DNA from: a virus
DNA: 33,147 nucleotides
Virus genome (UHGV): UHGV-0236124
Reading direction: 5' to 3' (one strand)
Notes under the pieces: model-generated
Told to the model about the DNA's origin: nothing
Database searches by the model: none
The model's input: the letters and a program-made list of their open reading frames with translations, nothing else
Shown: in pieces, positions 12,836 to 13,740 of the stretch
Layout of the letters: every line of letters begins with the position of its first letter
Numbering within the stretch: position 1 is the first letter of the stretch
Made by a program: the position numbers and the translations under genes

Positions 12836-12866
12836 ATGGTTTTCGCCGAAGATGACGACATGATGC

Positions 12867-12895
12867 TTGCATTTTTCAAAAAATATGGATAAGAT
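12867..12895 (+). promoter_or_regulatory. PR'-like late promoter candidate (probable qut region)
   Basis: TTGCAT-17 nt-TAAGAT about 30 nt after the Q stop. Confidence 0.5.
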
Positions 12896-12941
12896 TTTCC
12901 CAACGATGGGCTTTGTATGTCTACCGTTGATAAGATTTAAG

Positions 12942-12967
12942 AACCCGCCACTGAGCGGGTTTTTTTG
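12942..12967 (+). terminator. tR'-like intrinsic terminator
   Basis: aacccgcc-actga-gcgggttttttt, roughly 45-65 nt downstream of the predicted late-promoter start. Confidence 0.6.
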
Positions 12968-13124
12968 TGCCAGATGTCTCATGAAACTATGAAATGGATT
13001 GGTGCGTTAAACATTTTTTCTTATTATCTTTTAGATTTTGGAGAGATGGTTAACGTCTGTATTCCAGAAACTCGATGATTATTTAATAAATTAGTTTCAA
13101 TGATGCTTCTAGGTTATGACTGTA

Positions 13125-13541
13125 ATGAAAAAGGTATTAATAGCAGCGATAGGTTTTTGTTTAGTTGGTTGTGCAGGTATGAAATTACCTGAGTATTCGC
13201 AAGTTAAAGCAAGTCCGTATTATACAGATTGCCGTGCGTTTGCCATGGATGTTTATAAAAATGATGGATACAGCAAAATTGCGAAAACTACTATCCTTAG
13301 CATGGATGATGTGAAGGCTAGATATATTGTGACAGGGTGTGTAGTTGCTATGGGGAAAAACACTGTAGAGGAAATCAAAGCTGATCTCTCTGCTAAAGGG
13401 AGTTCTTTTGGGCTTATCAGTGGAGCTTGTTCTAGTGCGGCATGTCGGGTTGATGTAGAGCAGCAAATGAACGCTTATGTACTTGGTAGTTATTATGCTG
13501 CAAATAAAAAATTCCCGGATAAAATGAAAGCAGAGTTTTAA
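13125..13541 (+). CDS. lipoprotein (moron)
   Basis: MKKVLIAAIGFCLVGCAG signal peptide with lipobox L-V-G-C; A+T-rich; flanked by near-identical terminators. Confidence 0.6.
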   Translation: MKKVLIAAIGFCLVGCAGMKLPEYSQVKASPYYTDCRAFAMDVYKNDGYSKIAKTTILSMDDVKARYIVTGCVVAMGKNTVEEIKADLSAKGSSFGLISGACSSAACRVDVEQQMNAYVLGSYYAANKKFPDKMKAEF

Positions 13542-13618
13542 GTAAACCTTGTTTTCGATTATATGTCGAAGATAAATGTTAGTAACGGCATAATAAGTAA
13601 ATATATAGCTGTGATAGC

Positions 13619-13643
13619 AACCCGCCACTGAGCGGGTTTTTTG
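13619..13643 (+). terminator. intrinsic terminator, near-identical copy of tR'
   Basis: aacccgccactgagcgggtttttt, same stem-loop as 12942-12967. Confidence 0.6.
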
Positions 13644-13740
13644 TACCTGTAAACTTGGTGCAGTACAGTAAACACGCTGGTGGTCGTGAATACTGACTTT
13701 TTATCTTGCTGGCTTTTTAGACAAGAGTTATTGGTATGTC

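Follow-up and report, generated by a model that had tools for sequence, protein, structure and literature searches.

Behind the Q antiterminator gene of UHGV virus genome UHGV-0236124, a small lipoprotein gene lies between two copies of the same intrinsic transcription terminator, and this arrangement raises the question of what the bracketed segment is and whether the repeat records its arrival. The DNA analysed, referred to here as the window, comprised the whole stretch of 33,147 nucleotides (nt); coordinates are those of the window, and features lie on its plus strand unless stated otherwise. An initial annotation, made from the sequence alone, had described a Q-dependent late control region with a duplicated terminator bracketing an AT-rich lipoprotein gene, and had taken the direct repeat as the footprint of a moron insertion. 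All of the elements that it listed were found where it had placed them, and the interpretation of the repeat was not sustained. The locus is interpreted here as the switch for late gene expression in a temperate, lambda-type phage of E. coli, similar to Ayreon and mEp460, with an accessory cassette (moron) just behind its terminator; a probability of roughly 75 % is attached to this reading.

The late-gene switch

The Q gene (12083–12835) encodes a protein of 250 amino acids (aa) of the lambda Q family (PF03589, E = 3e-53), and is annotated as Q in the phages Ayreon, SfV and vB_EcoM-720R4 (hereafter 720R4). The protein matched the lambda Q chains in the structures of Q-loaded RNA polymerase, 7UBM and 7UBN, with E = 1e-37 (phmmer; 7UBM chain Q). 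It possessed an extra insert of approximately 40 aa (residues ~120–159) resembling a CxxCxGxG zinc finger, located between two stretches that aligned to lambda Q, and it gave a sub-threshold match to DnaJ_CXXCXGXG.

The promoter proposed in the initial annotation, TTGCAT-17-TAAGAT, was present at 12867–12895, with the −35 hexamer at 12867–12872, the spacer at 12873–12889 and the −10 hexamer at 12890–12895. Its register was that of the lambda late promoter PR′, the arrangement being TTGACT-17-TAAATT-6-AACGATGGG in lambda and TTGCAT-17-TAAGAT-6-AACGATGGG in the window. An ungapped alignment from the −35 hexamer to +9 revealed 31 identical positions out of 44, and the spacer, which occupies the position of the lambda Q-binding element, was identical to lambda at 11 of 17 positions (counted from the alignment). 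The 9-mer AACGATGGG (12902–12910), located 6 nt from the −10 hexamer in both phages, was identical to that of lambda; with a predicted transcription start at approximately 12902, it comprises a putative σ70-dependent −10-like pause element at +1 to +6, followed by GGG. In lambda, AACGAT at +1 to +6 is the −10-like element that holds σ70 and causes the pause at +16/17 where Q loads. The PR′ register and an invariant AACGATGGG were also found in at least five diverged leaders of phages with lambda-type Q in the IMG/VR database, and in a Yokenella genome. Judged by this likeness, PR′ of the window would be an active promoter that binds Q.

The first terminator, tR′ (12942–12966), possesses a 7-bp stem, a CACTGA loop and a run of seven T residues (T7); this canonical hairpin separates PR′ from the holin, lysozyme and Rz genes. 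In the absence of Q, RNA initiated at approximately 12902 is predicted to stop in the T tract at around 12963–12967, giving a transcript of some 62–66 nt. The predicted fold of a 65-nt leader consisted of a 5′ hairpin (12902–12928) and the terminator (minimum free energy −21.6 kcal/mol, z = −3.8), and the pairing of the 5′ hairpin was, by inspection, largely retained in the diverged leaders. The sequence GATAAGATTT occurred twice in this region, at 12888–12897, where it covers the PR′ −10 hexamer, and at 12929–12938 (approximately +28 to +37), just 5′ of the terminator. The second copy was considered as a conserved second pause element and rejected, as it was not kept in the diverged leaders.

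The repeated terminator

The 24-nt sequence AACCCGCCACTGAGCGGGTTTTTT occurred exactly at 12942–12965 and again at 13619–13642, with a spacing of 677 nt, so that the terminator repeat reported in the initial annotation was confirmed as an identical 24-mer. No further match was present in the 33-kb window even when three mismatches were allowed, and none arose in 100 shuffles. Each copy has the fold of a canonical intrinsic terminator, with a value of −13.9 kcal/mol (z = −5.2) for copy 1 when folded in context. Copy 2 (13619–13642) has a run of six T residues (T6) and forms the 3′ end of the cassette. Alignment of the two copies revealed identity at 24 of 24 positions of the core and at four of five positions of a short tail (GTGCC compared with GTACC). 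The identity was limited to the hairpin, the T tract and this tail, since the flanks beyond were at the level expected by chance (left 9/40, right 14/40; random expectation 10.8 ± 3.1). The tail of copy 1 is GTGCCAGATGT, of the type found in SfV, and that of copy 2 (13643–13655) is GTACCTGTAAACT, of the type found in 720R4. Another terminator of similar style, AACCCGCCTTTAGGCGGGTTTTTT, was located at 2348–2371.

Presence and absence of the cassette

The region 12000–14400 was 99.8 % identical to Escherichia phage Ayreon and 99.5 % identical to mEp460 and 15 converting phages for Shiga toxin (Stx) 2c. The gene order was KilA-N, DUF968/HNH, Q, the terminator–lipoprotein–terminator region, an open reading frame (ORF) of 67 aa (orf67), a DNA methyltransferase, holin, lysozyme and Rz. 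In the GenBank record of Ayreon, terminators are annotated at both copies and a third is annotated between the methylase and holin genes; in that of SfV, the first terminator (tR′) and the one between the methylase and holin genes are annotated.

The initial annotation had called for comparison with relatives lacking the insert. A three-way alignment showed that the lipoprotein gene is missing at this site from 720R4 and SfV, each of which has just one terminator. The flanks of these two phages were 99.3 and 97.6 % identical, respectively, to the window over the aligned parts. The segment absent from the empty site of 720R4 measures 677 bp (12966–13642, the register being ambiguous within the 24-nt repeat). 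The AT-richness that had been noted was also evident, the G+C content of the segment being 36 % compared with 47–50 % in the neighbouring DNA. To the right of the variable slot, a conserved boundary (TGGTGCAGTACAGTAAACACGC..., 13656–13700) marks the start of the orf67–methylase module. This boundary was the same after empty sites, after the lipoprotein cassette, after a 176-aa cargo ORF (locus L007) and in another E. coli prophage (L008) in which the same terminator and right-hand module follow a PF06530-type Q and a 205-aa ORF.

Among the loci sampled, the pause element and the right boundary CAGTACRGTAAACA were 80–83 nt apart in 28 empty sites, 758–759 nt apart in 17 sites carrying the cassette and 694 nt apart in one. 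The 694-nt locus, from E. coli AHS8C65RI (L007:2600–3260), shared the same Q, PR′ and right boundary, and its cargo was the 176-aa ORF, for which no Pfam or PADLOC match was found. The cargo was closed by a terminator of its own, different in sequence and immediately 5′ of the shared right boundary. The tR′ hairpin at this locus had lost the clean T tract, with TTAAATTATTTTTT in its place, and PR′ may drive constitutive transcription of the 176-aa ORF.

Among 5426 complete E. coli genomes, the full 865-nt arrangement was present in 215 and partial matches were present in 1682; DNA specific to the cassette (12966–13618) was confined to 20 of the 50,697 phage records. The records with the cassette included those of the 15 Stx2c phages, which are unannotated; in an Stx2k phage the cassette lies between Q and stx2. 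In E. coli NZ_OZ501612.1 (4147931–4149572) the 865-nt match consisted of two separate segments and overlapped an annotated IS1B transposase.

The lipoprotein gene was found in four unrelated genomic contexts. The first was behind a lambda-type Q in E. coli, and the second behind a Q of the DUF1133/PF06530 type in a Salmonella prophage. In other enterobacterial genomes it lay beside vapBC, DUF1391 and kilR genes, and in Klebsiella phage records of 84–120 kb a homologue with 62 % amino-acid identity adjoined a second lipoprotein gene. In one of the latter (Klebsiella phage ST13-OXA48phi12.3, L004:2931–3267), the homologue and the second small lipoprotein gene were followed by AACCCGCCAAACGGCGGGTTTTTTGT, a terminator closely resembling AACCCGCCACTGAGCGGGTTTTTT. 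The restriction of the full arrangement to a small fraction of E. coli genomes, together with the near-identical relatives that have one terminator and lack the gene, identifies the cassette as a moron, as the initial annotation had proposed. Polymorphism at the site, deviant base composition and a terminator of its own (copy 2) were all observed.

The lipoprotein

The gene (13125–13541) encodes 138 aa from MKK, with the lipobox LVGC, a predicted lipidation cysteine at position 16 and alanine at position +2. A start at 13125 (MKKVLIAAIGFCLVGC), ahead of this lipobox, appears more plausible than the start at 13116 annotated in GenBank. The signal peptide and lipobox (MKKVLIAAIGFCLVG|C) fit the pattern [LVI][ASTVI][GAS]C, and the lipobox cysteine was invariant in nine of nine homologues; four further cysteines were also invariant. 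Alanine at +2 suggests, by the +2 rule, sorting to the outer membrane. The ratio of non-synonymous to synonymous substitution rates (dN/dS) was 0.08–0.22, indicating strong purifying selection on the plus-strand frame. An overlapping minus-strand ORF of 147 aa (13185–13628) was rejected for this reason. A 37-aa ORF annotated in Ayreon (12965–13078) is probably non-coding; its TTG start lies in the T tract, it overlaps the candidate promoter described below, and its Salmonella counterpart has no start codon.

AlphaFold2 predicted a five-helix bundle, with a predicted local distance difference test score (pLDDT) of 79 and a predicted template modelling score (pTM) of 0.75. The model and the cysteines point to a periplasm-facing, disulfide-bonded lipoprotein, probably in the outer membrane, and this is the most that can be said of the protein. 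The family is tiny: only nine clusters were obtained both when 5.8 billion proteins were searched by word index and when 1.84 billion representatives were searched exhaustively with HMMER, the named relatives being E. coli, Salmonella and Buttiauxella proteins. No match was found in Pfam, NCBIfam or PADLOC, defence and exclusion families included; the protein fell in PHROG 4748, which is labelled ‘unknown’, and its predicted fold had no match in BFVD at E ≤ 0.001. Identity as an Rz1-like spanin was ruled out by size, predicted fold and occurrence outside lysis cassettes.

Small lipoproteins that exclude other phages include Cor of phi80, N15 and the mEp phages and Llp of T5. The window protein resembles these in being a small phage-encoded lipoprotein, but no similarity of sequence, profile or fold to them was detected, and it is predicted to be an all-helical, disulfide-bonded bundle. 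By analogy with other prophage lipoproteins, a role in exclusion or lysogenic conversion is plausible; a more doubtful reading makes the protein the first member of a new family of factors that alter the envelope or exclude phages. The lipoprotein family, small and strongly conserved, circulates among phages of E. coli, Salmonella and Klebsiella.

Proposed expression of the cassette

A candidate σ70 promoter for the cassette was located at 12999–13027 (TTGGTG, 17 nt, TATTAT), between tR′ and the lipoprotein gene. Both of its hexamers aligned with TTGGTA-18-TATCAT upstream of the Salmonella homologue, in a spacer that was otherwise only 57 % identical.

The following working of the locus is proposed. 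PR′ would fire constitutively, and RNA polymerase would pause through contact of σ70 with AACGAT at +1 to +6. Without Q, polymerase would stop at tR′ (12942–12966) and release the short leader RNA. With Q, a terminator-resistant polymerase would transcribe past tR′, the cassette, copy 2, the orf67–methylase module and a further, third terminator before entering the lysis genes. The cassette itself would consist of a spacer with the candidate σ70 promoter, the gene for a Lol-sorted, disulfide-bonded helical lipoprotein, and the second terminator copy. In a lysogen, copy 2 would keep out of the late genes any transcription that begins at the cassette promoter or escapes termination at tR′. If the cassette promoter is active in lysogens, a 3′ terminator would be needed, as transcription would otherwise continue into orf67 and the methylase gene and then, beyond the third terminator (15178–15199), into the holin and lysozyme genes. 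A Q-modified polymerase that ignores all of the terminators would also make the lipoprotein late in infection. A parallel for such insulation is provided by the 176-aa cargo of AHS8C65RI and by the methylase module, each of which ends in its own terminator, and the pattern fits a rule by which each cargo slot behind Q is closed by a terminator of its own. Finally, the 24-nt direct repeat would allow precise re-loss of the cassette.

An alternative is that the lipoprotein gene lacks its own promoter and is expressed like any other late gene that depends on Q, and that copy 2 is one more terminator overridden by Q. The position of the gene is as this would predict, since in the phages of E. coli and Salmonella alike it shares the strand of the late genes and is flanked by PR′ and the lysis genes; the candidate promoter is weak, and the late operon contains other internal terminators. 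The gene is, however, absent from close relatives, has a foreign base composition and also occurs outside late operons, beside vapBC and kilR and in the 84–120 kb Klebsiella phage records. In addition, the promoter-like hexamers are kept within a diverged spacer, and the product (138 aa, helical, four conserved cysteines) is not spanin-like. This alternative is considered unlikely, and the gene is preferentially regarded as part of a moron with its own candidate promoter and terminator.

Origin of the terminator repeat

Evidence on the origin of the repeat came from the alleles of the terminator, from the Salmonella locus and from the wider distribution of the 24-mer. Copy 1 combines T7 with the tail GTGCC(A/T)GATGT, as in SfV (T7 GTGCCTTGATGT), and copy 2 combines T6 with GTACCTGTAAAC, as in 720R4. 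Both tail alleles occur singly, as empty sites. In PhiR47_1 and the Stx2k phage the two copies also differ in a loop base, copy 1 having G where copy 2 has A.

Homology to the Salmonella prophage extended from precisely the first nucleotides of the upstream terminator to a point approximately 10 nt past the stop codon of the lipoprotein gene. Identity was 34 % in the leader, 91 % in the terminator and tail and 77 % in the coding sequence, with the intermediate value given above for the spacer, and fell to 29 % downstream of the coding sequence. These limits indicate that the upstream terminator travels with the gene, in this case behind an unrelated Q. The downstream terminator in Salmonella was a different one (AAAACCCGCATTGCGCGGGTTTTTGTATCC), located 12 nt after the stop codon. 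At this locus (L131:3560–3812) only a C-terminal remnant of the methylase gene remained downstream of the cassette, which suggests a joint formed by deletion or recombination.

The terminator proved to be a stock element. The 24-mer AACCCGCC(A/G)CTGAGCGGGTTTTTT was found in at least 120 IMG/VR contigs (loci L011–L130), with 45 combinations of left and right flanks among the matches listed. A Q gene ended within 400 nt upstream of the 24-mer in 13 of 42 contexts among the matches listed, the Q families being PF03589 (seven), PF06530/DUF1133 (four) and PF06323 (two); in other contexts among these matches the 24-mer followed tail genes, toxins and repressors. It was also present in 29 species-representative genomes of GTDB (loci L133–L161), ranging from Yersinia to Pseudomonas, Nitrosomonas and Marinobacter, and its presence in genomes as distant as Pseudomonas and Nitrosomonas means that some occurrences are possibly convergent. 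Distinct right flanks after the T run tended, among the matches listed, toward A/G-T-T/G-G/C-C-C.

Chimeric empty sites were also found. The L029 site, ...GCTGAGCGGGTTTTTTGTGCC|CGTAAAC, is the exact product predicted for a crossover in the tail of an L062-type cassette, and it shares the leader variant of that cassette. Five other empty sites joined a T7 run like that of copy 1 to the tail of copy 2. The two tail alleles, the upstream terminator that accompanies the gene in Salmonella and the status of the 24-mer as a stock terminator indicate that the arrangement most likely arose by recombination at a terminator common to many enterobacterial phages, or by carriage of one, and not by duplication of a target site.

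Coincidence or convergence offers another explanation, in which the terminator belonging to the cassette happens to equal the resident tR′ 24-mer, with neither duplication nor recombination at that point. The many flank combinations among the viral matches listed and the occurrences in distant Proteobacteria would be compatible with this, as would the look-alikes after the Klebsiella phage homologue and at 2348–2371. Copy 2, its tail and all DNA rightward are, however, identical to the single-terminator region of 720R4, so that copy 2 is at least as much a part of the right-hand, resident module as of the cargo; the chimeric empty sites show that the copies recombine, and among the loci sampled the doubled 24-mer occurred only in this cassette, always with a spacing of 676–677 nt. 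Coincidence is accordingly rated as improbable, and recombination at, or carriage of, a shared terminator is retained.

The insertion footprint of the initial annotation, by which a mobile segment entered behind tR′ and duplicated a target of approximately 24–30 nt (as a target-site duplication or by repair of a staggered break), accounts for the exact direct repeat and for the single copy in empty relatives as against exactly two in the filled site, but is very improbable, given that the copies are different alleles that exist alone in SfV and 720R4 and differ in their loop bases in PhiR47_1 and the Stx2k phage, that the repeat of at least 24 nt far exceeds the target duplications known from transposases, that the 677-bp segment contained no transposase or integrase gene and only short, imperfect inverted repeats, and that the Salmonella gene is bracketed by two different terminators.

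Several points weigh against the moron reading in the form set out above. The −35 hexamer of the candidate promoter is weak (TTGGTG, three of six positions) and the promoter was missing from a consensus scan; its conservation was seen in one diverged comparison. The short RNA, the cassette promoter and the insulation by copy 2 are all deduced from sequence features, and the lipoprotein has no informative relatives in sequence or fold. As the 24-mer is a stock element found in 29 scattered genomes, the identity of the two copies alone is no proof of their common descent. The chimeric alleles fit gain and loss alike, and the direction of events is not polarisable. No 24-mer flanks the homologues close to vapBC/kilR or those of the Klebsiella phage records, from which it follows that the terminator is not obligatory for mobility of the gene.

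A wider role for the hairpin can be put forward tentatively, namely that the 24-nt element, besides terminating transcription, is a portable module boundary common to lambdoid phages whose Q proteins belong to three unrelated families, and acts as a recombination ‘socket’, its short homology allowing cargo behind Q, including cargo between Q and stx, to be exchanged and precisely excised. This is doubtful; if true, a terminator serving as a general recombination socket for post-Q cargo would be of more interest than an ordinary moron. The locus as it stands is a clean but ordinary case of gain or loss of extra genes by phages. Its value is as a natural example of terminator-closed cargo modules, in which gain and loss would proceed by crossover at a common terminator, and it refines current understanding without overturning it, as well as naming an accessory gene that can be tested.

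Comparison with known systems

The locus shares with the lambda late module a homologous Q, the −35/17/−10 register, AACGATGGG at +1 and an intrinsic terminator before the lysis genes. The terminated PR′ transcript of lambda is the 6S RNA of 194 nt, whereas the RNA predicted for the window measures some 62–66 nt, with a leader of only approximately 40 nt before the hairpin. The window also differs from lambda in the zinc-finger-like insert of its Q, in a terminator sequence unrelated to lambda tR′, and in the presence of a cargo cassette and a second terminator copy behind tR′.

Lambdoid phages use the interval between Q and holin for cargo that alters the host, most famously Shiga toxin. In Stx phages the order is PR′, the short RNA StxS, tR′, cargo (tRNAs and stx) and lysis genes (PMC7547250, PMC6266700). 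In Stx1 and Stx2a phages, 258 nt separate PR′ from tR′, and the StxS precursor of 258 nt, which sets the precedent for PR′ RNAs that are made constitutively and terminated, is processed to a small RNA (sRNA) of 74 nt (PMC7547250, PMC6266700). The window resembles these phages in carrying cargo in the Q-to-holin interval behind a PR′ transcript that would be constitutively terminated, but its leader is much shorter than their 258 nt. In the Stx2k phage, with the cassette between Q and stx2, toxin transcription from PR′ must pass two terminator copies.

Examples of morons include lambda bor and lom and HK97 gp15. Like lambdoid morons (PMC3594210), the cassette contains a single gene of foreign composition that is present or absent in near-identical genomes and is spread over unrelated phages, and it possesses its own terminator and a candidate promoter. 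It differs from them in having a flanking terminator that repeats the resident tR′ exactly, which provides a built-in direct repeat, and in encoding a protein of an uncharacterised family. Public records already contained the sequence and both terminators, and the occurrence of morons between Q and holin is textbook knowledge. Literature searches found no paper on this cassette, and no report of the two-allele repeat, the chimeric empty sites, the terminator–gene unit behind an unrelated Q or a definition of the lipoprotein family.

The hairpins are of a type similar to that of the E. coli trp attenuator, which accounts for the sub-threshold Rfam matches of both copies to Trp_leader and Leu_leader (24.5 bits compared with a gathering score of 41). 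In contrast to the attenuator, the window has neither a leader peptide nor an alternative antiterminator pairing, and it is not a member of that family. Matches to Trp_leader, Leu_leader and STnc130 were all below threshold and are explained by terminator shape.

The ArcA-repressed sRNA-17 of E. coli K1 strain RS218 has been placed in an mEp460 prophage (PMC7719688), and was considered as a possible PR′ leader or cassette RNA. This was rejected, as an exact 30-mer from the supplement of that paper, out of the 193 nt of the sRNA, mapped far away, at 5060–5089.

Downstream modules

The DNA beyond the right boundary comprises a second cargo module (13765–15171), consisting of the 67-aa ORF (13765–13968) and an N6/N4 DNA methyltransferase gene (14119–15171; PF01555, E = 2e-42; PADLOC MTase_II; PHROG 331). 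A terminator scan identified a third intrinsic terminator at 15178–15199, between the methylase gene and the holin gene (15248–15454; PF04971), which brings the number of terminators between PR′ and the lysis genes to three.

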